From NCBI GenBank assembly GCA_964610645.1, contig CAZSZE010000016.1, positions 617 through 64,616 on the forward strand: DNA of 64,000 nt. Direction: 5' to 3'. Source of the stretch: an uncultured Enterobacterales bacterium (GTDB taxonomy: Bacteria; Myxococcota_A; UBA796; CAJQPC01). Shown here piece after piece: positions 52,528 through 62,644 of this stretch. The position numbers and the translations under genes are program-made. The notes below the pieces were generated by a model. It searched no databases, was not told where the DNA came from, and saw only the letters and a program-made list of their open reading frames with translations. The stretch's first letter is position 1; the number at the start of each line of letters is the position of its first letter.

Positions 52528-55068
52528 CTACAGGGACTCCAGCCGCTGGATCATGGACTTCTTCTGGTCTGGAAGGCTGGCTGTTTCCGCAGCGGTGATG
52601 CCTTCGTTCAGCAACTCTCGGGCCCGCTCCGTTTCCCCGGCCTTGGCGCAGATGGTGGCCAGCTGGTCACAGGTGGCAGCCAACTTTGCGTGGTCCTTGG
52701 CATGGCGTGCGGCAGGCAGGGCAGCATCGAAAGCCTCCCGGGCAGCCTCGTCCTCGCCGCTTCGGCTCGCGGCCAGCCCCGTGTTGAACAGCAGCTCCTT
52801 GGCGAAGTGCACGTCTTGCTGCAGGTTGGCTCCGGATCGGGATGCGCGGAAGTTCTCCAGGGCATCCGAGGGCTTCCCGGACATCAACTGGAAAAAGCCC
52901 AGGTTGTAGAGGTCGACCGGCTCCAGCTGGGCCAGCTTCAATTCCCGGGTGAGGCGCAGGGTGTTCTGGGCGGTTTCCATGGCCTCGGTGTAGCGCTTGA
53001 GGCCCCCCTGGGCCTGGCCCAGCAGGGCAGAGGCAGCCCGCTCGCGCATTGGGTTGCGCAAGGAGCGGGCGATGACCTGGACACGTCCCAGGACCTCCAC
53101 CGCCTTGGTGGCCTGGCCGGACATCAGCAGCGCTTCGCCATAGCCAAGGCCCGACTCCAGGGCGACCCCGGCCTGGCCCGTGCTCCCAGCGATTTCATTG
53201 GCCTTTTGAAAGTGCTCCGCGGCCTTGGCAGGCTCGTTGTCCTGCTTGGCAGCCAGTCCGCGAATGAACTCGCCCTGGGCAGCCACCTGGGGCAATGCCC
53301 GGTCTCCTTCGGGCGTCTCAATGCGTCCGAGTTTTAGGGCCTCCTCCACGTGTTGCAGGGCGACGTCCGGTTGGCCATCGGACAAGGCGATCAGGCCCAG
53401 GTGGTTCTCCACCTCGGCGACCTTGCGTTCGTCCTCGCCTGCCCGGAACAGGGTGCGGGCATCCTGTGCCCGGTCCTTCGCCCGGTAGAAGTCCTGGCGG
53501 CGGTAGTCCAGGCGAGAACCTGCAAAGAGCAGCCACGCCTTCATGGGGCGGTCCTCCCGCTCATCGGCCCATGCCATGGCCTCGTCGCAAAGGGGCTCGG
53601 CCCGCTGAAAATCGCCGGCCTGAACCATGCGATCCAGCAGGTTCATGTAGATCGTGCGCCGCATGGCATCGGGCCAGTCCAACTCCAGGCTGCGAATCAT
53701 GTCCTGGGCCATGGCCCAGACCTCGGGCCGGTCCCCGCCCAGGGCCATGGAGCGGAGCATGCGGGCCCGGTTGGGGTCCCCCATGGCCGCGTAAAGGCGG
53801 GCGGTACGCACCACGAAGTCGTAGCTCTGGGGGACCAGAAACCGCTCCAGGAAAAACGCAGTGCGCCGGCCCATCTCCCGGCCTTCCTCTGCGCGGGCAG
53901 CGTCGGCCAGGTACAGATCGCGGGCGCCCTGGAACCAGATGGCATGGGAAAACTGGTACAGCCAGGTCTGCAGTGGCTTGGAAAACTGGAGCTCCTTGAA
54001 CAGCGGAGCGGTGGCATCCAGGACATCATCCACGCTGTCCCGATCATATCCACCGATGTCGGCCAGCAGGCCCGAGGGAAAGGCGCGACCCAACAGGGCA
54101 GCTCGAAAGATAATCTCCTCCAGGTTGTTGGGTTCGGCGATCTTCCGCTTGGTGTCTGGATACCCGTCCGAGTCGAACTCGTCGTGGTCGAAGTCCTTTG
54201 GAAACAAGGTGGCGAGGCTTTCGCCGGAGAGGTCGTTCTGGAGACGGCCCTCAGAGGCCAGTACCTCGACCAGCTCGGCAACAAACCCTGGCCGTCCCTG
54301 GGCGATGCGGGCCACGTCTGCGGCGTTGGCCTCGATCTCCTTGGAGGACAGGTAGAGCTCCACTTCCTCCTCGCCCCACGGGGCCAACTCCCAGCGCTCG
54401 ATGGAGTCTCCCTTTCTCTCCAACAGGTCCAGCCAAGGAGAGGGGTGGGTGGCCTTCTGGGTTTCGGTTTGGGTTTCGGAGCCCAGGATCAGCAGGAGCT
54501 GCCCGTCGGCGCATTCCTCTTGCAGGGCCTCAAGCAATCCGTGAATGGCCAGGGAATGGCACAGGTGTGTGTTCTGGACTTCCAACACCACGGGAATCTT
54601 GCGAGCGATGCCCGCCGTGATGTGGACCAGTCCCAGGAGTGGGTTGTCCCGGGGGAGGCGCACCTGGATCGACTCGGGGGTCTTTCCGGCGGGCGCGGCC
54701 TTCAGGGTCTCCACAAAGCCCTGGTACCAGCCCTGCACCCGCTTGGTCTGTTGCGGAATCTGGGCATTGAGGATCATCTCCACCCGGCCCTTGAGGAGCG
54801 GGTCTTTCTGGAGGGTGGTCAGCAGTCCCGCATACAAGCGCAGGAGCGCCCGCATGCCGTCTTCTTCGTCGAGCAGGTTGTTCCGCCAGACAAGGACACC
54901 CTGCTCGGTCCCTTCTAGGGTCTTGGCGAAGGAGCCCACCAGCGCCCGCTTGCCACCGCCAAGCGGGGACTCCAACAAAACGGTCTGGGCCGTGCCGCCG
55001 TTGGCAGCATCGAAATGGCCCCGGAGCCGCTTGAGATCGGCAGGACGAGCAACGAAGAGATTGGCCAC
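52528..55068 (-). CDS. P-loop NTPase (AAA_16/STAND-like) with long TPR array
   Basis: 846 aa with a GTG start. N-terminal Walker A-like LLESPLGGGKRALVG. The C-terminal ~450 aa are TPR-like repeats. No DNA-binding or effector domain recognised. Confidence 0.75.
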   Translation of the reverse strand: MANLFVARPADLKRLRGHFDAANGGTAQTVLLESPLGGGKRALVGSFAKTLEGTEQGVLVWRNNLLDEEDGMRALLRLYAGLLTTLQKDPLLKGRVEMILNAQIPQQTKRVQGWYQGFVETLKAAPAGKTPESIQVRLPRDNPLLGLVHITAGIARKIPVVLEVQNTHLCHSLAIHGLLEALQEECADGQLLLILGSETQTETQKATHPSPWLDLLERKGDSIERWELAPWGEEEVELYLSSKEIEANAADVARIAQGRPGFVAELVEVLASEGRLQNDLSGESLATLFPKDFDHDEFDSDGYPDTKRKIAEPNNLEEIIFRAALLGRAFPSGLLADIGGYDRDSVDDVLDATAPLFKELQFSKPLQTWLYQFSHAIWFQGARDLYLADAARAEEGREMGRRTAFFLERFLVPQSYDFVVRTARLYAAMGDPNRARMLRSMALGGDRPEVWAMAQDMIRSLELDWPDAMRRTIYMNLLDRMVQAGDFQRAEPLCDEAMAWADEREDRPMKAWLLFAGSRLDYRRQDFYRAKDRAQDARTLFRAGEDERKVAEVENHLGLIALSDGQPDVALQHVEEALKLGRIETPEGDRALPQVAAQGEFIRGLAAKQDNEPAKAAEHFQKANEIAGSTGQAGVALESGLGYGEALLMSGQATKAVEVLGRVQVIARSLRNPMRERAASALLGQAQGGLKRYTEAMETAQNTLRLTRELKLAQLEPVDLYNLGFFQLMSGKPSDALENFRASRSGANLQQDVHFAKELLFNTGLAASRSGEDEAAREAFDAALPAARHAKDHAKLAATCDQLATICAKAGETERARELLNEGITAAETASLPDQKKSMIQRLESL

Positions 55069-55167
55069 TGAAAACTCCTGAATCTGCGCACAGAAAGGAC
55101 CACGGGAATAACGCGGCGAGACCCCCCGCGGGTGGGTGTTATGGTTTCGGACCGAGGAGGGTGCAAC

Positions 55168-55740
55168 GTGATCCTGGGAGCCATCAGCCTGCTGGGCTTT
55201 TCAATGGGGTGCGGAGGGGAGGATCTGGATCCTCTGGGTGCCCACTACAACATGCACCTCGTGGGGGTGAAGGACGATTGCCATTCCGGGGACGATGAGC
55301 AGACATTCGAGGAGACGGACTTTGTCTACTCCGTGACCTTTCCCGGGGGAAGCGATGCCGTGATCTCCCTGGGGGGGCATTCCTTTGCCCGATCCTCCAC
55401 CCTCGCCGGTTGTTCTATCGACAGCTACTACTCGCCGGTCTTCAAGGAAGAGGCCCCCGGCAACGATGAGGAACACTGGGTGCAGTGGGAGCTGGAGGGG
55501 ACTGCTTCCTTCCAGCAGGGAGGGGGCGGCTGTGGCATTGAGGCCGAGGCCTTCGAGTTGATGTCGGAGTACGAGTTCACGGATTGGGGGAAAACCAACG
55601 TGGAAGTGGAACCCAAGAACCTGGACTGGATCGGCATCGAGATCTTCCGAATCGTGGGAATGGGCGAGTCGGTCACCGACCTGGAGATCAACTGCGAGTA
55701 CCACGTGATGACAACGGGAGTCGAACTCTCCGAGGAGTAA
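55168..55740 (+). CDS. hypothetical lipoprotein
   Basis: Lipobox LLGFSMGCG. The GTG at 55168 lies 6 nt after GAGGAGGG. The ORF-track start is 55132. Confidence 0.5.
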   Translation: MILGAISLLGFSMGCGGEDLDPLGAHYNMHLVGVKDDCHSGDDEQTFEETDFVYSVTFPGGSDAVISLGGHSFARSSTLAGCSIDSYYSPVFKEEAPGNDEEHWVQWELEGTASFQQGGGGCGIEAEAFELMSEYEFTDWGKTNVEVEPKNLDWIGIEIFRIVGMGESVTDLEINCEYHVMTTGVELSEE

Positions 55741-55749
55741 ACGTCACTG

Positions 55750-57291
55750 GTGGAGAACCTCTCCCATCTGACCCTTGGTGGGGTCCTGAAACACCAGGCA
55801 GCCCGCTGTGCCGACAGGCCGGCTCTGCTCTCTCATGCGCGCTCGCTGACCTGGGCCGAACTCGATGACGAGGTGGATCGCCTGGTCTCCTTGCTGCATG
55901 GGCTTGGGGTGCGGGCAAACGATGCGGTGGGGATTCTGCTGAACAAGCGCCCGGAAGTGGTGACCGGATTTCTTGCCTGTGCCCGCTTGGGAGCGATTGT
56001 GGCCCCCGTGAACTTCAAGCTGGGCATCGACGACGTGCGACGCACCCTTGAGCTTGCCCAGGTCCGCACCGTGCTGGTGGAGCGGGAATTCGACCCGCTG
56101 CTCCACGGGCTCCTGGGCCAGCTTCCGGATCCCGCCCGCATTCTCTACGTGGGAGGAAAGGGAAGCTACGGGGAGTCGGTCTACGAGGCCATCGAGGATG
56201 TAGAGATTCTCGCGGTGGACATGCCGGACCCGAACAGCCCCGTCTACTACAACTTCACGTCGGGCACGACCGGCCGCCCCAAGGGAGCGGTGACTACCCA
56301 CCGGCAGATTCTCGCCAACGCGCTGACCGCTTTTGATCGAGACGGGGCCGATGGCCTCGGTTTCACGGAAGACGACACTTTTCTGTGCCTCTTTTCCGTG
56401 TTTTCCCATCCCCATGAGATCTTCCACCGATCTCTGTTGTGTGGAGGTGCGTTTCTGGTGTTGGACACCCTCTCCCCCCGGGTGGTGGCCCAGGCCGTGG
56501 AGAAGTTCGGCGTGTCCTGGATGATGGCGGTGCCCAGCTTCTACGAGATGCTTCTGGACCATGTGGGGGACCTTGGATGCGACCTGAGCTCGCTGCGTCG
56601 CCTGGAGGCGGGGGGGGCAGCCCTGTCCGCGGGTCGGTTGGAGCACCTGGAGGCAGCCTTTGGGGCGGATCTGCTGCCGGTCTGGGGATCCACAGAGACC
56701 ACCGGGGTGGCGTTGGCCCTTCGACCGGATCGGCCGCGGGAACCGGGCACCACGGGCCGCCCCCTGTCCGGCTACGAGGTGCGGGTAGTGGACCACCGGG
56801 GGCGTGACTGTGCGCCGGGCGTGGTGGGGGAGATGTGGGTGCGCGGGGAGGGGGTCTGTAGCGGCTACGTGGACAACCCGGATGAAACGGCGGCCTTGTT
56901 CGAGGCGGGTTGGTATGCCACCCGGGACCTGGTGCGTTGGACCGACGGGGGTTTCGTGGAGTTTGTCGGGCGGCGATCGGAAATGCTGAAAATCGGTGGG
57001 ATCCGGGTCTATCCGCTGGAGATCGAGCAGGTTCTGCGGCAACATCCTGGAGTGCGGAACGTGGTGGTGGTCCGGGCCGAGGAGCGGGTGCGCGGAGAGA
57101 TTGCCCGGGCGGTGGTGCAGGCCCGCACAGGGGAGCAGCTGGAGCCCAAGAAGCTGGCTCGCTACTGCCGGGACCGCATGCCGGTGTTCAAGGTGCCGCG
57201 GATCATTGAGGTCTGGGAGGAGATCCCACGGCTGCCCAATGGCAAGGTGGACAAGAAACAGATCCTTGCGTTGGCGGGGGCGGGCGGGTGA
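55750..57291 (+). CDS. AMP-dependent acyl-CoA/acyl-carrier ligase
   Basis: 513 aa with a GTG start. Motifs FTSGTTGRPKGAV, WYATRDLV and PRLPNGKVDKKQI. Confidence 0.9.
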   Translation: MENLSHLTLGGVLKHQAARCADRPALLSHARSLTWAELDDEVDRLVSLLHGLGVRANDAVGILLNKRPEVVTGFLACARLGAIVAPVNFKLGIDDVRRTLELAQVRTVLVEREFDPLLHGLLGQLPDPARILYVGGKGSYGESVYEAIEDVEILAVDMPDPNSPVYYNFTSGTTGRPKGAVTTHRQILANALTAFDRDGADGLGFTEDDTFLCLFSVFSHPHEIFHRSLLCGGAFLVLDTLSPRVVAQAVEKFGVSWMMAVPSFYEMLLDHVGDLGCDLSSLRRLEAGGAALSAGRLEHLEAAFGADLLPVWGSTETTGVALALRPDRPREPGTTGRPLSGYEVRVVDHRGRDCAPGVVGEMWVRGEGVCSGYVDNPDETAALFEAGWYATRDLVRWTDGGFVEFVGRRSEMLKIGGIRVYPLEIEQVLRQHPGVRNVVVVRAEERVRGEIARAVVQARTGEQLEPKKLARYCRDRMPVFKVPRIIEVWEEIPRLPNGKVDKKQILALAGAGG

Positions 57292-58331
57292 GCGGTTCGG
57301 TGGGACGACACCTGAAGGACCTGGTGTCACTTGGCTTCTTTGGTCCTGGCCGACCTCTGCTCTCCCGCCTGTCGAGGAAGCAGTTGGACCAGTTGGCGGC
57401 GACTTTGGCGGGGGTGGGAACCCGCATGGACAAGGAGCGCACCGTCCTGGCCCGGGAAGAGCTCCGGCGCTGCTTCCCCGAGGGGGGTCTTCCCCGAGGG
57501 GAGGACGACATCTTGAGGGATGCGTGGCACCTGGCCTCTTTCAATGAACTGGAAGTGCTGCGGTACCCGGCCATGAATCCGGACAACGTGGGGGAGGTCT
57601 GCACTGTGGAGGGGATGGCCCACCTGGAGGAAGCCCGGGCAGCCGGGCGCGGGGCCATTCTGGCGATCGGCCACCTGGGGGCAAACCAGATGATCATGCC
57701 GGCACTGGGCCACAGGGGGTTTGCCATGAACCAACTCTCCGCTCCGCCCACTGTTTGGGCGGAGATTCACCGGGATGGGCGGACCACGCCGGCCTATCGA
57801 CGCGTCCTCGCCCATCGTTGGAGCCTGGAGCAAGCCCTGCCCGTGCGACACATCAATGTGTTTCGCTTTCTGCGACCGGCGCTTGAGTGCCTTGCAGCCG
57901 GCGAGGTGCTGGGGCTGGCGTTTGATGGCGGCGGCGGCAAGCGCTGGGCACGGGTGGAGTTCCTCGGCCGACAGGCCAATGTCTCGGTCCAGTCTGTGCA
58001 ATTGGCGAAGAAGACGGGGGCAGCGCTGCTACCGACCCGTGTGGGACGGGTTCCCGGGGAGCCGAAACACCGCATTGAAATCCACGCCCCCATCGACCTG
58101 GGGGACGAGCAAGCCACGCTGCAGGCGGTGGCCGACCAGTTCACATCCTGGATTCGCGACCAGCCTGAGCAGTACGTGCCCTTTCTCGTGGTGCGGCGGC
58201 AGATGGCATCCATGGATGTGCAGCCGTTTTTTGCGGATTACCCGGAGCAGCCCGACGCGGGAGGGGCGGAGGCAGCGGTCGCCCGTTTGCGGGCTGCAGC
58301 GGAGCGGGCAGGCGTGGCGGGGCCGACATGA
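57288..58331 (+). CDS. lysophospholipid/lipid A biosynthesis acyltransferase family protein (LpxL/HtrB-like)
   Basis: 347 aa with a GTGA overlap. RGAILAIGHLGANQM sits at the position of the H(F/L)GNWE box, followed by GLAFDGGGG...VEFLGRQA. Confidence 0.65.
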   Translation: MSGSVGRHLKDLVSLGFFGPGRPLLSRLSRKQLDQLAATLAGVGTRMDKERTVLAREELRRCFPEGGLPRGEDDILRDAWHLASFNELEVLRYPAMNPDNVGEVCTVEGMAHLEEARAAGRGAILAIGHLGANQMIMPALGHRGFAMNQLSAPPTVWAEIHRDGRTTPAYRRVLAHRWSLEQALPVRHINVFRFLRPALECLAAGEVLGLAFDGGGGKRWARVEFLGRQANVSVQSVQLAKKTGAALLPTRVGRVPGEPKHRIEIHAPIDLGDEQATLQAVADQFTSWIRDQPEQYVPFLVVRRQMASMDVQPFFADYPEQPDAGGAEAAVARLRAAAERAGVAGPT

Positions 58332-59677
58332 GTCTGCTGGCGTTTGGGTGGTTGTGGTGGGGGTGCGGATCCCCCGCCCCCGAGGAAGTGCCCGGCTCCA
58401 GAGAGGCACCCCCGTGCCAGGGTGCGGCTTGCTTGGAGGCGACGGTGCCGGATGGCTCCCCCCCGGGCCTGGTGGTCTTTGCGGTGCTGGACACGGTCCG
58501 GGCCAGCAGCACGTCCATCTGCGGGCACGACCGGCCCACGACGCCTTTTCTGCAGTCCCTGGTGGAAGCCGGCGCCTCGCACTCCTGCCGAGCAGAAACT
58601 CCCTCCAGTTGGACCATTCCAAGCCATGCGAGCTTCTTCACCGGGGCCAATGTGCCGACACATGGCACCCACCGGGTCGGGGAAACCGTCCGCCCGCTGG
58701 ATGCACAGTGGGAGACCCTGGCCGAGAGGTACCAGGCGCGGGGCTACGACACCCTGTGCATTTCTGCGAACTCTTTTGTCTCGGACGTGACCGGGCTTAC
58801 CCAGGGGTGTGATTTTGTGCGACCCGGACGGCGAAACCTCACCGGTTCGGAGGTGGTTCAGACTCTGAAGGAGCAGATGGCCGGGCGCACCCCCGGGGAG
58901 CGCGGGTTGTTTGTGTTCCTCAACTTCTACGAGGCCCATGATCCCTGGCAGCCAATCCCCAAAGGAGTGGAGTGGGTGGAGGCGCGGCAGCTCCCACAGG
59001 AGGATGCTTCCAAGCGCTGGGCATTCGTCCGGGGGGAGATGAAGGAGGCTGAAGCCTCCCGCTACCTGGCCCACGTGACGGATCTCTATGACCACGGCAT
59101 TTTCCTTGCCGACCAGTTCCTGGGAGAGTCCTTTGAAGTGTTGCGCCTGGCCGGCTGGATGGACGGCGGTACCCGCTGGGTGATCACGTCGGACCACGGG
59201 GAGTTCCTGGGGGAGCACGGCCTGTTGAACCATGGAAAGACGCTGTTTGAGCCGGTCACGCGGGTGCCTGTGGTGGCGTTTTCCTGGCCCCGGGTGGCCG
59301 TCGACTTTGGGACCGCTCCGTTTTCGGCCACGTCGGTGTTCCAACTTGCCCTGGATGGAACCCTGGGCACGGTGCCCGCTGTCGCGGTGGACCTTCCCTC
59401 TCCCCATTGGAACGAGAACACACAGGGCCGATGGGGAGGTGGTTCGTACGTGGCCGCCTGGGAGGGCGCCCGAAAGCTCCTTTGGCAGGACGGCCAGATG
59501 ACCGAGACACACCTCGACGCGGATCCCCGGGAGGAGAGCTGGACCCCGGTGGAGGCAGGCATTCCCGACTCGCTGTCCTCTGCTGTGGAGGCCGTCCTGG
59601 GAAGAGTGGGGGAGTCCGATGCCCAGATTGATCCCCAGATGCTGGAAATGCTCCAGGCCCTGGGCTACGCGAACTGA
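58328..59677 (+). CDS. sulfatase-like hydrolase/transferase (alkaline-phosphatase superfamily), lipoprotein
   Basis: 449 aa with an ATGA overlap. Lipobox-like WLWWGCGS, then VFAVLDTVRA. The nucleophile region reads SSWTIPSHASFFTG, that is Thr-x-Pro-x-His instead of Cys/Ser-x-Pro-x-Arg. Confidence 0.8.
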   Translation: MSLLAFGWLWWGCGSPAPEEVPGSREAPPCQGAACLEATVPDGSPPGLVVFAVLDTVRASSTSICGHDRPTTPFLQSLVEAGASHSCRAETPSSWTIPSHASFFTGANVPTHGTHRVGETVRPLDAQWETLAERYQARGYDTLCISANSFVSDVTGLTQGCDFVRPGRRNLTGSEVVQTLKEQMAGRTPGERGLFVFLNFYEAHDPWQPIPKGVEWVEARQLPQEDASKRWAFVRGEMKEAEASRYLAHVTDLYDHGIFLADQFLGESFEVLRLAGWMDGGTRWVITSDHGEFLGEHGLLNHGKTLFEPVTRVPVVAFSWPRVAVDFGTAPFSATSVFQLALDGTLGTVPAVAVDLPSPHWNENTQGRWGGGSYVAAWEGARKLLWQDGQMTETHLDADPREESWTPVEAGIPDSLSSAVEAVLGRVGESDAQIDPQMLEMLQALGYAN

Positions 59678-59728
59678 CGGGCCCCAACGCTGGGGCGTTT
59701 GACTAACGGGCCCCAACGCCGGGGCGTT
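59676..59728 (+). repeat. two tandem copies of a 24-nt GC hairpin (ACGGGCCCCAACGC(T/C)GGGGCGTT)
   Basis: Copies lie at 59676-59699 and 59705-59728, directly after the sulfatase-like stop. Stem GCCCCA/TGGGGC. Terminator-like, but without a U-tract. Confidence 0.6.
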
Positions 59729-59741
59729 AGAGTGCAGTGCC

Positions 59742-60224
59742 ATGCGGTTGTTGCTTCCAGTCCTGACCTTCCCGTATCTCGCGGGGTGCATTCCCCAGCC
59801 CACCGAGGAGAGGACCCCGGAAGACACCGGGGTCGAGGACACGGGGGATCCCGTTTCCTGTGGCGAGGAGGACCTGGTCTTCGGCGCACTGGTGGAGGAT
59901 GCCGCGGGCCCTTGCGACAGCTGTCCCCATGGATTGGACCTGACTTTCTACGGCACAGTGGCCAATCCCTGTGAACACGAGGTGACATTCACCACCTCCG
60001 CAGCGTGGATCGTAGGGACCTACACCCTGGAGCCGCTGGGGTGGGAGTCGATCCAGCCGGATCGCGACGAACTCCACCCGTGGGTCATGCAACCAGGGGA
60101 GGTCATGCGGGAGGAACTCCTGGAGACGACACTTTCCCAGGGGAGCTACTTGTTGGGGGTGCAATTCACCGACCTGCCCGCGCCCCACTCTGTGACGGCC
60201 GCCTTTGATGTCGTGACCCAGTGA
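59742..60224 (+). CDS. hypothetical lipoprotein
   Basis: 160 aa. Lipobox FPYLAGC. No family recognised. Confidence 0.55.
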   Translation: MRLLLPVLTFPYLAGCIPQPTEERTPEDTGVEDTGDPVSCGEEDLVFGALVEDAAGPCDSCPHGLDLTFYGTVANPCEHEVTFTTSAAWIVGTYTLEPLGWESIQPDRDELHPWVMQPGEVMREELLETTLSQGSYLLGVQFTDLPAPHSVTAAFDVVTQ

Positions 60225-60235
60225 ACTGACGAACC

Positions 60236-61972
60236 ATGCAGAGAAGCTTGGGATTCGCCCTTTCCCTGGGGGTATTTGCCACCGGCCTGGAGCTCTGGGT
60301 GCGGGACCCTGGCCACGGTGCCCTCGGTGCAATGGACTGGGCTGTGCTGGTGGTTGTTGGGATTCTGCTCACCACTGGGCTTGCCCTTATCGGTGGCCTT
60401 GTGGAAGGGGGACTGAACAGACTCCGGCTTCCCTTTCCCGCCCAGGGCCTGGTCTTAGGGCTTCCCGTGGCGGCCCATGGAGCCGTCTGGGTCCGATTTG
60501 AGTGGTTGCGCACCTGGTCTGCCTCCGAGCCCAGGCTCCTGGCTGCGTTGGCGGGATCCATCGGCGTGGCGATGCTTGGCTCCATCTTGTTGGCCCGGTG
60601 GTTGTCGGGACATCGCCCGGTCTGGGTGGGGCTGGGCTTGTTGGGGTTGGCCGGGGCCGGATGGCAAGCACGATTGCCCTCCCTGGAAGCCCCGCCGGAG
60701 AGTGGAACTCCCGTCCTGCTCGTGACGCTGGACACGGTCCGCATGGATCGGCTGGGGGTGTACGGCGGGCCGGTTCCCACGCCCCATCTCGACGCTTTGG
60801 CCAGGGAGGGGGTGGTCTTTGAGCAGGCCATTGCCCCGGCGCCTCTGACCCAGTCCTCGCACCTGGCGATGATGACTGGAGTGCCCGCCCACGAATCGGG
60901 CGTGGTGTCCAATGGCACCCATATCGGGAATCGTCCCGCCATGGTGCAGCATGCGTTTTCAGCGGCGGGCTGGGACACGGCCGCCTTTGTCTCGGGATTT
61001 CCGCTGCACTCCCGGTTTGGCTGGGCCCAGGGATTCCGGCGCTATGACGATGACTTCGGCAGGATTCCCGGATTGGAGCAACTGGGGCTCGCCCGGGCTG
61101 TGATCTCGCTTGGGGGGAGCGCACCCATCCCGCAGCGGGCGGGCGATGTGACCGTTTCCCGGTTCCGAAAGCATGTCCAGCGCACAGGAGAGAGACCCTG
61201 GTTTGCCTGGGTACACCTCTTTGATGCCCATGCGCCGTACGAGGCGGTGGATCCGGGGCCCGCGGACACGTCCGGCCCCCCCTTGTTGTTGCCCGACTAC
61301 TGGCCAGCCTCCCACAGGGCCATCACGGACACCGCGGTGTTTGAAGCTGCCTACGATGCAGGCCTCGCCTATCTGGACTCCCTCCTGGGGGAGATGCTGG
61401 AGGCAGTGGGGAAGGACGTGGCGGTGGTGGTGGTGGGGGACCACGGGGAGTCACTGACCGAGCACGGGTACCTGTTTGATCACGGGGATCACCTGTACGA
61501 CGCTTCGCTGCGAGTGCCGCTCCTGGTGCGTGCTCCCATCGCTGCGGCGGGTACCCGGGTGCCTTGTCAGTTCCCCGGGGTGGACCTGGCTGCAATGCTG
61601 CTGGAAATCGGTGGGCTGCCGGGGGCTTCCTCGGGTTGGAAAGAGGCGCTTGGGGGAGGGGACTGTGCGGACCGGCCTGCTCTTTCCACCACCGTGGGGG
61701 CCCGGTACCAGCACAATCCGCCCATCGACCATGCGCTGCGCCACCCGGGAGAAAAGGTCATTCGGGGGGAGGAAGGCTGGGTCGAGCGCTACGACCTCCT
61801 GGCCGATCCGGGGGAGACGGTGGACCTCGCCGTGACGGATCCCGCTGCAACCCGGGCTGCCGTCGCGCGCCTGCAGGCGGGCCTGGCCGGGGAAGTCATC
61901 CCTCTGGCCCCCGAGCGCGACCCGGACATCGAGGCCGCCCTTGGGGCCTTGGGGTATGTCGAAGGCAACTAG
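60236..61972 (+). CDS. membrane-anchored sulfatase-like phosphotransferase (LtaS/EptA/OpgB-type architecture)
   Basis: 578 aa. About 5 N-terminal TM segments are followed by VLLVTLDTVRMDRLG and the nucleophile region PLTQSSHLAMMTG (Thr). Confidence 0.8.
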   Translation: MQRSLGFALSLGVFATGLELWVRDPGHGALGAMDWAVLVVVGILLTTGLALIGGLVEGGLNRLRLPFPAQGLVLGLPVAAHGAVWVRFEWLRTWSASEPRLLAALAGSIGVAMLGSILLARWLSGHRPVWVGLGLLGLAGAGWQARLPSLEAPPESGTPVLLVTLDTVRMDRLGVYGGPVPTPHLDALAREGVVFEQAIAPAPLTQSSHLAMMTGVPAHESGVVSNGTHIGNRPAMVQHAFSAAGWDTAAFVSGFPLHSRFGWAQGFRRYDDDFGRIPGLEQLGLARAVISLGGSAPIPQRAGDVTVSRFRKHVQRTGERPWFAWVHLFDAHAPYEAVDPGPADTSGPPLLLPDYWPASHRAITDTAVFEAAYDAGLAYLDSLLGEMLEAVGKDVAVVVVGDHGESLTEHGYLFDHGDHLYDASLRVPLLVRAPIAAAGTRVPCQFPGVDLAAMLLEIGGLPGASSGWKEALGGGDCADRPALSTTVGARYQHNPPIDHALRHPGEKVIRGEEGWVERYDLLADPGETVDLAVTDPAATRAAVARLQAGLAGEVIPLAPERDPDIEAALGALGYVEGN

Positions 61973-61978
61973 GCCGGG

Positions 61979-62425
61979 CTAATCGGTGCGGCCGAAGGGC
62001 ACGTTGATGTCGTCTCCCGCCTTGAGCCAGAGCTTGTCCACGGTGCCGGGGAGGCACAGCGGCAGGGGGTCGAGGGTGGCGGTGTTCCAGCCAAGTTCCT
62101 CTCCCGCAAGCGTGATTTCAGCGCCCTCGGCCTCGGAAGCATGGGAGAAGTTGGTGGGACAGCCAAGAGACCATTCCTCCCGCTCCCAGCGCTCCATCGT
62201 GAAGGGAAGGGCGACCCCTTCCACCTCGAGCTCCCCGTCGTCCTCGTCCAGGATCAGCGTGGCATCCTGCAGCGCCTCGGGCACCTCCGCCAGAATGTCG
62301 TCGGCGTCCGGGACACCGTCCAGGAAGGCCTCGACGGTGAAGGTGCCGGGATCCAGCGTCTCTTCCGGGGTGCCGCAGCCGGTGAATGCGAGGAATGAGG
62401 CAAGTGGAAACAGTACTCGGGTCAT
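61979..62425 (-). CDS. hypothetical lipoprotein
   Basis: 148 aa from MTRVLFPLASFLAFTGCG, with GGAGGGA upstream of the ATG at 62425. Confidence 0.55.
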   Translation of the reverse strand: MTRVLFPLASFLAFTGCGTPEETLDPGTFTVEAFLDGVPDADDILAEVPEALQDATLILDEDDGELEVEGVALPFTMERWEREEWSLGCPTNFSHASEAEGAEITLAGEELGWNTATLDPLPLCLPGTVDKLWLKAGDDINVPFGRTD

Positions 62426-62644
62426 GATCCCTCCAGATCTTCCTGACCTTGCCATTGTTGCGATCAGAATTGAAGCTGTGCAATTCCCCAAGTACAAAGG
62501 CAAGAAGCCGCGAGCAGTCCCATCACGAAGAGCGCGGTGGTCTTTCGGCTCGCGGATTGGACCAGGGCCAGCAGTTGCACATCGATCTTCTGTCCCAGGC
62601 GATCCTACTATGGTTTGGCCCAACCCCCCGACATGAAGGGGGCG

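Follow-up and report, generated by a model that had tools for sequence, protein, structure and literature searches.

The window considered here is a stretch of 64,000 nucleotides (nt) from contig C16 of a 4.7-Mb metagenome-assembled genome (MAG), 96% complete, of a bacterium placed in the Myxococcota_A. We describe a gene cluster at positions 55750–61972 of this window, which codes for a FadD-like acyl ligase, a PatA-like acyltransferase, two sulfatase-like proteins (sulfA and sulfB) with a Thr at the nucleophile position, and a small lipoprotein. We propose that the products of this operon decorate an envelope glycolipid anchored in the membrane, or a glycan linked to a lipid, a reading whose probability we put at about 0.45. 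More precisely, and with moderate confidence, the acyl-coenzyme A (CoA)-dependent O-acylation of the envelope glycolipid or glycan would be followed by periplasmic phosphoester chemistry. The genes of the cluster are the following.

55750–57291, + strand: AMP-forming acyl ligase of the ANL superfamily, FadD-like, 513 residues, cytoplasmic (PF00501 and PF13193).
57288–58331, + strand: PatA-like membrane acyltransferase with H129-x-G-A-N-Q134 and D213 (PF03279).
58328–59677, + strand: sulfA, a lipoprotein of the alkaline-phosphatase superfamily (PF00884), with L-D-T-V-R, T-I-P-S-H...T-G and S-D-H-G-E.
59742–60224, + strand: small lipoprotein of 160 residues with a canonical L-A-G-C lipobox.
60236–61972, + strand: sulfB, with five N-terminal membrane helices and a periplasmic S1-sulfatase-fold domain (PF00884, predicted structure).

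The original prediction, which was made from the DNA letters, described five open reading frames (ORFs), two overlaps of 4 nt and the motifs H-L-G-A-N-Q, T-I-P-S-H and T-Q-S-S-H, and all of these are present as described. The overlaps of the ligase and acyltransferase genes (GTGA at 57288–57291) and of the acyltransferase and sulfA genes (ATGA at 58328–58331) are read directly, and the assignments to protein families agree with Pfam and NCBIfam.

The conservation of the gene order is the first argument for our proposal. A scan for relatives of the acyltransferase, with one genome per species, returned 80 loci; the relatives of the locus are MAGs of Myxococcota, many of them from lakes. The ligase gene lies directly upstream of the acyltransferase gene, on the same strand and with gaps of 0–168 nt, in all the Myxococcota-type loci that have enough upstream sequence (64/64), while the genes that flank this pair vary among relatives. 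A sulfB-like gene is found at most 8 kb downstream of the acyltransferase gene in 22 of the 38 loci with full flanks, on the same strand in 20 of them. In the carriers that have diverged furthest (families f8 and f10, 40–49% identity) the ligase, the acyltransferase, sulfB and sulfC form a tight operon, where sulfC is a second sulfatase-like paralog with about five predicted transmembrane (TM) helices, whose gene is located on contig C105 in the present genome. We also surveyed one sample of 301 Myxococcota genomes. The acyltransferase ortholog is present in 28 of them and the sulfB ortholog in 30 (all 28 acyltransferase carriers and two others), so that the presence or absence of the two genes agrees in 299/301 genomes, including families of patchy distribution (f2, 2/18; f3, 4/6). 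Our proposal is based in part on this strict pairing of ligase and acyltransferase, on the operon kept in divergent families, and on the fact that every genome with the acyltransferase also has sulfB.

In a quick maximum-likelihood tree (IQ-TREE) of the sulfatase-like proteins, sulfB and sulfC form well-supported clades (support 97 and 96, respectively) that each extend across all families, which adds to the argument, while sulfA, found only in this stretch and in loci L006 and L007, forms a separate long-branch clade. Since the tight operon occurs in divergent families and the sulfB and sulfC clades span all of them, the ancestral unit consists of four genes: ligase, acyltransferase, sulfB and sulfC. 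The arrangement in the window is then a recent variant, in which sulfA and the small lipoprotein gene, present only in the closest relatives, were inserted and sulfC was relocated. As to the conservation of the five-gene block, whose examination had been suggested, a block is indeed conserved, but the conserved unit is this set of four genes.

The second argument comes from the acyltransferase itself. It belongs to the family Lip_A_acyltrans (PF03279, 83.7 bits for a gathering cut-off of 22.3), in agreement with the original assignment to the lipid-A-acyltransferase family, but its nearest relative is PatA (Rv2611c / MSMEG_2934, the mycobacterial phosphatidylinositol-mannoside (PIM) acyltransferase), which acylates a sugar, and not LpxL. 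PatA is both its best sequence match in the Protein Data Bank (E 3e-9, 24% identity) and the best Foldseek match of its AlphaFold model (5f2z, E 1.9e-14, TM 0.79; predicted local distance difference test score, pLDDT, of the model 89); LpxM from Acinetobacter baumannii is the second-best structural match. The scores with the NCBIfam models of LpxL and LpxM (TIGR02207, 36.8 vs 297.8 bits; TIGR02208, 27.8 vs 336 bits) and with the PatA equivalog model (PRK07920, 58.9 bits vs 209) are all below the cut-offs. The protein has neither a signal peptide nor a full TM helix, which is consistent with a monotopic association with the membrane, as in PatA. Unlike PatA, which has an HX4D box (His and Asp separated by four residues), it has an HX4Q box, it is not found in the context of a PIM pathway, and its gene lies among those of a dedicated ligase and of periplasmic Thr-type enzymes.

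The alignment that we examined covers 27 homologous sequences of four phyla (Myxococcota, Nitrospirota, Desulfobacterota and Planctomycetota). The box reads H-L-G-A-N-Q in the acyltransferase of the window, and the Gln (Gln134) is invariant in the 27 sequences of the four phyla, so that the presence of Gln where LpxL has Glu, which had been pointed out for this one protein, is a property of the whole subfamily. The invariant segments are H129-x-G-A-N-Q134-M-x-M-P-A-x-G, Q-x-S-A-P, L-P-V-x-H and D213-G-G-x-G; H129 and D213 align with H126 and E200 of PatA, respectively. PatA takes palmitate from palmitoyl-CoA and attaches it to a hydroxyl group of mannose by means of a His126/Glu200 relay (PMC8519569). 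In LpxM from A. baumannii a hydrogen bond joins His122 to Asp192, the Glu127 of the HX4E box being 7.6 Å away (PMC6286764). Since the His of both enzymes pairs with a different acid, and since the equivalent residue, D213, is invariant here, we consider by analogy that Gln134 should not be taken as a sign of inactivity. His129 and Asp213 are likely to form the catalytic dyad. The likeness of the model to PatA and the invariance of the two aligned residues both support our proposal.

When 1.84 billion cluster representatives were searched with a profile (E<=1e-30), 345 clusters of the HX4Q subfamily, at 50% identity, were retrieved. In NCBI the orthologs carry only generic names (for example "lysophospholipid acyltransferase family protein"), the lookup in the protein atlas gave only generic PF03279 clusters, and the literature search for this combination of genes gave no match. 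In these sources we found no ortholog of the acyltransferase or of the operon with an assigned function.

The homologs at 32–37% identity (from Nitrospirota, Desulfobacterota and Planctomycetota) are encoded in clusters of the Wzx/Wzy type. The content of two of these loci, L075 and L079, taken together (neither of them holds all the genes) includes Wzy and Wzx, the acyltransferase and another PF03279 gene, B12-radical-SAM genes (three or four), a PF01663 phosphodiesterase, a carbamoyltransferase and a GDSL/AlgX protein. This type of cluster, with Wzy, Wzx, PF01663, carbamoyltransferase and B12-radical-SAM genes, appears to be uncharacterised. One distant locus has the order sugar-phosphate transferase, ligase, Zn-dependent dehydrogenase, acyltransferase, and another one has an AMP-binding gene just upstream of the acyltransferase gene. 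In addition, members of the subfamily are fused to B12-radical-SAM domains (twice), to a Wzx-type flippase and to a flavin amine-oxidase-like domain. The Wzx/Wzy context and the fusions of these distant members point to a lipid-linked glycan or a glycolipid as the probable acceptor of the acyltransferase.

Outside Myxococcota, the most regular partners of the HX4Q acyltransferases are pairs of B12-binding radical SAM enzymes (40–60% identity); the linkage or fusion is seen in loci L075, L076, L079, L083 and L085 and in proteins P0193, P0228, P0206 and P0272.

PF03279 membership and the second rank of LpxM among the structural matches could also be read in favor of an alternative or conditional late acylation of lipid A, of the LpxL/LpxM/LpxXL kind, in which the ligase supplies the donor and an EptA-like enzyme then performs a phospho-modification; this is a sub-case of our proposal. 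The genome has lipid A genes (KdtA/LpxK, MsbA), and the architecture of sulfB, five TM helices followed by a Thr-enzyme, resembles that of EptA and YejM (PMC7576196). On the other hand, the scores with the LpxL and LpxM models fall far below the cut-offs, the box is HX4Q instead of HX4E/D, and the associations of the distant members are with Wzx/Wzy glycan clusters, not with genes for lipid A. The acyltransferase is moreover found in only 28/301 of the Myxococcota genomes searched. LpxL and LpxM share the PF03279 fold with the present enzyme and differ from it in that the locus has no acyl carrier protein gene. In rhizobia, the transferase LpxXL is encoded beside a dedicated supply of acyl donor, a logic that is shared by the present locus.

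The genome has five PF03279 paralogs, on contigs C16, C17, C42, C22 and C2, whose motifs are H-L-G-A-N-Q, H-A-G-A-W-E, H-M-G-P-A-Q, H-A-G-N-F-M and H-L-G-N-A-D, respectively. Three of the loci other than that of the window bear on the argument.

C17:3511–9522 (L089), - strand: canonical lipid A operon with PMT_2 (ArnT-like), MsbA, a KdtA-LpxK fusion of 710 residues and LpxL (HX4E).
C42:7522–11977 (L087:4535–8978): second module, with a 5-TM Thr-type sulfatase-like gene, an HX4Q acyltransferase and a PF01663 phosphodiesterase.
C22:46210–49706 (L086:4211–7707), - strand: second acyltransferase-ligase pair, a PF03279 protein followed by a fusion of 843 residues between an AMP-ligase and a xylose-isomerase-like TIM barrel.

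The C17 paralog is the canonical late acyltransferase, LpxL. The acyltransferase of the window is therefore not the housekeeping LpxL, since the canonical HX4E copy is in the MsbA-KdtA/LpxK operon, and this also argues against a lipid A late acylation by the C16 enzyme; on balance we consider the latter quite improbable. The presence of the canonical LpxL on C17, together with the Wzx/Wzy and B12-radical-SAM associations of the distant members, is on the contrary one of the reasons why we favor the decoration of a glycolipid or lipid-linked glycan. The C42 locus supports the same proposal, because its HX4Q paralog lies between a sulfatase-like gene of the 5-TM type and a PF01663 gene. Its arrangement is conserved within the order, and in several relatives a C42-type module and the ligase-acyltransferase locus share a contig, 33–52 kb apart.

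The pairing of a ligase with an acyltransferase is also the logic of Aas, and one may imagine that the two enzymes of the window re-acylate lysophospholipids in a repair pathway, the Thr-type enzymes being either head-group transferases that consume phospholipids or unrelated proteins. The ortholog name given in NCBI, a weak match with the lysophospholipid acyltransferase model NF006487 (35.6 bits, for a cut-off of 281), the distant structural likeness to the lysophosphatidic acid acyltransferase PlsC (E 1.4e-4) and the existence of the ligase-acyltransferase pair on C22 go in this direction. E. coli Aas (2-acyl-glycerophosphoethanolamine acyltransferase/acyl-acyl carrier protein synthetase) indeed joins functionally an AMP-forming ligase to an acyltransferase of the lysophospholipid-acyltransferase superfamily; it is however a single polypeptide whose acyltransferase is of the PlsC type (PF01553), whereas here there are two genes and a PF03279 enzyme of the PatA type. 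Both the fold and the sequence are nearest the glycolipid-acylating enzymes PatA and LpxM, not PlsC (E 2e-14 vs 1.4e-4), the distant members are found within, or fused to, Wzx/Wzy glycan machinery, and there is no adjacent gene for an LplT-like transporter. A repair function of this kind is unlikely in our opinion.

Regarding the ligase, the domains AMP-binding (PF00501, 269.5 bits) and AMP-binding_C (PF13193) are recognized by Pfam, and the best NCBIfam model is that of a long-chain-fatty-acid–CoA ligase (PRK06187, 346 bits, below the cut-off of 476). The closest solved relative is FadD5 from Mycobacterium tuberculosis (E 7e-59), with an alignment that is continuous over 494 residues. The core motifs of the ANL superfamily are intact: T-S-G-T-T-G-R-P-K-G, G-S-T-E, G-R-R-S-E-M-L-K-I-G-G and P-N-G-K, the C-terminal catalytic Lys included. 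There is no carrier-protein gene near any of the loci examined. The small ORFs near the ligase genes of loci L071, L084 and L080 were considered as candidate carrier proteins and rejected, none of them having a Pfam match. The fatty acid is most likely activated to acyl-CoA, and the absence of carrier-protein genes is one of the supports of our proposal. We infer the use of acyl-CoA and the acylation of a sugar hydroxyl from the adjacent CoA-ligase-like gene and from this absence of carrier-protein genes.

In Vibrio cholerae, AlmE, AlmF and AlmG attach glycine to lipid A; AlmG is a relative of the lipid A late acyltransferases that is paired with an adenylating enzyme (cited in PMC6286764, ref. 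143). By analogy with this system, the ligase of the window would activate an amino acid, which the enzyme of the LpxL family would then esterify to a lipid, and the ligase does score 227 bits with the amino-acid adenylation model TIGR01733. However, the models with the best scores are those of fatty-acid–CoA ligases, and no carrier-protein gene accompanies the loci. That the substrate is an amino acid, as for AlmE, is unlikely: the counterpart of the A4 region in the alignment is the fatty-acyl motif of FadD5, and the Asp of the F-D-G-S motif of gramicidin synthetase, which binds the alpha-amino group, falls in a gap. We regard an aminoacylation of this kind as very remote.

The sulfatase-like proteins are recognized by Pfam as PF00884 (52.9 bits for sulfA, 105.7 bits for sulfB). 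Their motifs at the nucleophile position are T-I-P-S-H in sulfA, T-Q-S-S-H in sulfB and T-A-P-A-H in sulfC; the three proteins have in common T-x-P/S-x-H...T/S-G and D-H-G-E, and none of them has a C/S-x-P-x-R motif. The phmmer alignment with an S1 sulfatase (6pt6) places L-T-Q-S-S-H of sulfB on L-C-S-P-S-R, so that Thr205 is at the position of the formylglycine. The initial reading of a Thr nucleophile in place of C/S-x-P-x-R is thus well founded. These enzymes share with the S1 sulfatases and the phosphonate monoester hydrolases the catalytic fold and the motif skeleton x-x-P/S-x-x...T-G. They differ from S1 sulfatases by the replacements of Cys/Ser by Thr and of Arg by His, because of which formylglycine cannot form, by the replacement of the second metal-binding Asp by Thr (L-D-T-x-R), and by the addition of a membrane anchor. 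They are a Thr-for-formylglycine, His-for-Arg branch of the sulfatase fold. With a Thr at the nucleophile position and no C/S-x-P-x-R motif, true sulfatase chemistry is unlikely. About 24 PF00884-like paralogs are present in the genome, none of them with C-x-P-x-R and many with T-x-P/S-x-H...T-G and D-H-G-E. We rejected a true sulfatase as an explanation, no C/S-x-P-x-R being present in any of these paralogs. The Thr motif is not special to the cluster, since Thr-type sulfatase-like genes have expanded throughout the genome.

In 18 orthologs of sulfB, the invariant residues are L-D166-T-x-R-x-D, T205, H209, H258, H327, D330 and H332, as well as D402-H403-G-E, H410 and D415-H416-G; D166, D402 and H403 are putative metal ligands. 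The membrane domain, which has no Pfam match, also has invariant residues (G12, R87 and P99). We count the conservation of T205, H209, D166 and D402-H403, together with that of polar residues in the membrane domain, among the arguments for a functional module. The AlphaFold model of sulfB (pLDDT 85) consists of five long N-terminal helices (residues 2–145) followed by the catalytic domain. The frame of sulfC has several stretches of hydrophobic residues, which would fit about five membrane helices, and the sulfA orthologs have a short hydrophobic leader that ends with G-C-G-S.

The original prediction considered these proteins as phosphotransferases of the EptA/LtaS/OpgB kind. The metal-ligand set (Asp, Thr, Asp-His) is that of the members of the superfamily that transfer phosphoryl groups (EptA, LtaS, YejM; PMC7576196), and sulfB shares with EptA/MCR-1, LtaS, OpgB and YejM (PbgA) the five N-terminal membrane helices, the extracytoplasmic PF00884 domain, the Thr nucleophile, the Asp...Asp-His metal site and the envelope-lipid setting. 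The multi-helix anchor is present in sulfB but not in sulfA, which is a lipoprotein. On the contrary, the catalytic domain of sulfB, including its C-terminal subdomain, is nearest to the S1 formylglycine sulfatases and the phosphonate monoester hydrolases (Foldseek E 1e-18; for residues 156–567 in VIA-align, Z 30–35 and a root-mean-square deviation of 2.6–3.8 Å for 333–375 aligned residues). EptA and LtaS are absent from the 50 VIA-align matches listed, for a query that was not the membrane domain alone, and the NCBIfam EptA/MCR models give 14–21 bits for sulfB and 18–33 for sulfA, to be compared with cut-offs of about 490–1250. We therefore retain the Thr and the membrane anchor from the initial view; the kinship with EptA and LtaS is so far an architectural analogy, from which membership does not follow.

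It may be that synteny does not reflect a shared pathway, the ligase and the acyltransferase forming one pair and the sulfatase-like genes coding for independent periplasmic phosphoesterases, involved for example in the scavenging of organic phosphate. Several of the observations that weigh against our proposal would be explained in this way. The large number of sulfatase-like paralogs in each genome raises the chance that one is adjacent. The spacing varies: sulfB immediately adjoins the acyltransferase gene in only 9/38 of the loci that have enough flank, and PDZ protease, RF3 or GT2 genes lie in between in some loci. The sulfC gene is relocated in this genome, and PF00884 genes are missing from most of the loci of distant homologs. 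The unlinked C42 acyltransferase is found in exactly the same 30/301 genomes as sulfB, and since this unlinked locus has the same distribution, the co-occurrence may reflect an envelope gene set that is present throughout the lineage rather than one pathway or operon. To this must be added that related genomes are not independent observations, that there is no flippase or glycosyltransferase in the Myxococcota operon, and that each of the three reactants, acyl donor, acceptor and phosphoester substrate, is deduced. The absence of a common pathway is nevertheless rather unlikely, given that the tight four-gene operon is kept at about 40% identity in f8 and f10, that the presence-absence match extends to the patchy families f2 and f3, and that the adjacency of a gene of the alkaline-phosphatase superfamily with an HX4Q acyltransferase gene recurs on C42 and in Nitrospirota and Desulfobacterota clusters.

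In the mechanism that we propose for the decoration of the glycolipid or glycan, the cytoplasmic FadD-like ligase, whose family is clear, would activate a fatty acid, most likely to acyl-CoA. The monotopic PatA-like acyltransferase, with the fold and the His129/Asp213 pair described above, would then use this acyl group to acylate a hydroxyl, either on a sugar or on a hydroxy-acyl chain, on the cytoplasmic face of the inner membrane. After export, the periplasm-facing metallo-enzymes with a Thr nucleophile, sulfB, sulfC and sulfA, would add or remove a phosphoester-linked group, as their topology and active-site residues suggest; the hydrolysis of a sulfate ester would not be involved. The logic parallels that of lipid A maturation (first LpxL/LpxM, then MsbA, then EptA) and that of the decoration of periplasmic glucans, with proteins that belong to different subfamilies.

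A bolder version, which we find doubtful as a whole, is that of an undescribed envelope-decoration pathway in which the S1-sulfatase fold would have given rise, through the changes Cys to Thr and Arg to His, to phospho-group transferases that are anchored in the membrane by a five-helix lipid-binding domain of a novel kind and that work obligatorily with a ligase-fed, PatA-like HX4Q acyltransferase. The C16 and C42 loci would then contribute to a single new product, a glycolipid or glycan with acyl and phospho-substituents that is characteristic of this lineage of freshwater Myxococcota.

Every protein of the module is in a known superfamily and the logic resembles that of known envelope remodelling systems, while the HX4Q subfamily, the five-helix-anchored Thr-type enzymes of sulfatase fold and the conserved coupling to the ligase have no function assigned to them and only generic names in the sources. 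This study defines a conserved PF03279 subfamily of about 345 clusters with an invariant HX4Q, whose members are automatically annotated as lipid A lauroyl transferases, whereas their context and fusions point to the acylation of a glycan or glycolipid. It also delineates, within the sulfatase fold, a large branch with Thr in place of formylglycine, to which annotation routinely gives the wrong name "sulfatase". If the operon does produce a distinct acylated, phospho-decorated envelope molecule, this would be a new route of outer-envelope remodelling in diderms, and the four-gene unit is concrete enough to be tested by heterologous expression.

Regarding the surroundings of the operon, the following features were noted.

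55132–55740, + strand: predicted lipoprotein of 202 residues with an S-M-G-C lipobox, 9 nt before the ligase start.
59676–59728, + strand: GC-rich hairpin present in two copies, in the 64 nt that separate sulfA from the small lipoprotein gene, read in the sequence.
61979–62623, - strand: lipoprotein gene convergent with sulfB, with an F-T-G-C lipobox after an internal Met; next gene after sulfB.

The lipoprotein of 202 residues, for which there is no Pfam family, may be encoded by the opening gene of the operon. Homologs (28–88% identity) are found in related loci, and because MoxR-DUF58-TgpA genes usually lie between the homolog and the ligase gene, its membership of the module is doubtful. 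The MoxR-DUF58-TgpA genes were themselves rejected as a part of the module: they are upstream in many relatives but replaced by a TPR/cNMP (cyclic nucleoside monophosphate) protein in f10, and the TgpA query used gave no homolog in this genome. The small lipoprotein of 160 residues has no Pfam or NCBIfam match, and its homologs in the related loci are only those of L006 (66%) and L007 (40%).

The two copies of the hairpin are near-identical (G-C-C-C-C-A...T-G-G-G-G-C) and 29 nt apart; the scan for promoters and terminators found nothing. The block ends at 61972, since the next gene is the convergent lipoprotein gene on the minus strand. The ORF at 61986–62636 (+ strand) was rejected as a gene, being a low-complexity, Ser/Pro-rich shadow frame of that minus-strand gene.

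Many public contigs of Myxococcota-like MAGs carry implausible organism labels (Klebsiella pneumoniae, Bifidobacterium breve, "uncultured Enterobacterales"), for example in loci L006, L008, L009, L020, L021, L047 and L057, among others. Elsewhere in the genome, the acyltransferase-ligase pair on C22 lies just downstream of gyrA, and the C2 paralog (C2:1222–6968, L088, - strand) is a GT2-PF03279 fusion of 603 residues, encoded beside a protein of 1312 residues with MMPL and acyl-CoA:6-aminopenicillanic acid acyltransferase-like domains.

Last, a gene at 52528–55068 (- strand), divergent from the cluster, codes for an AAA_16/TPR protein of 846 residues. Its synteny with the ligase-acyltransferase pair is kept in most relatives (46–94% identity), which makes this protein a possible regulator.

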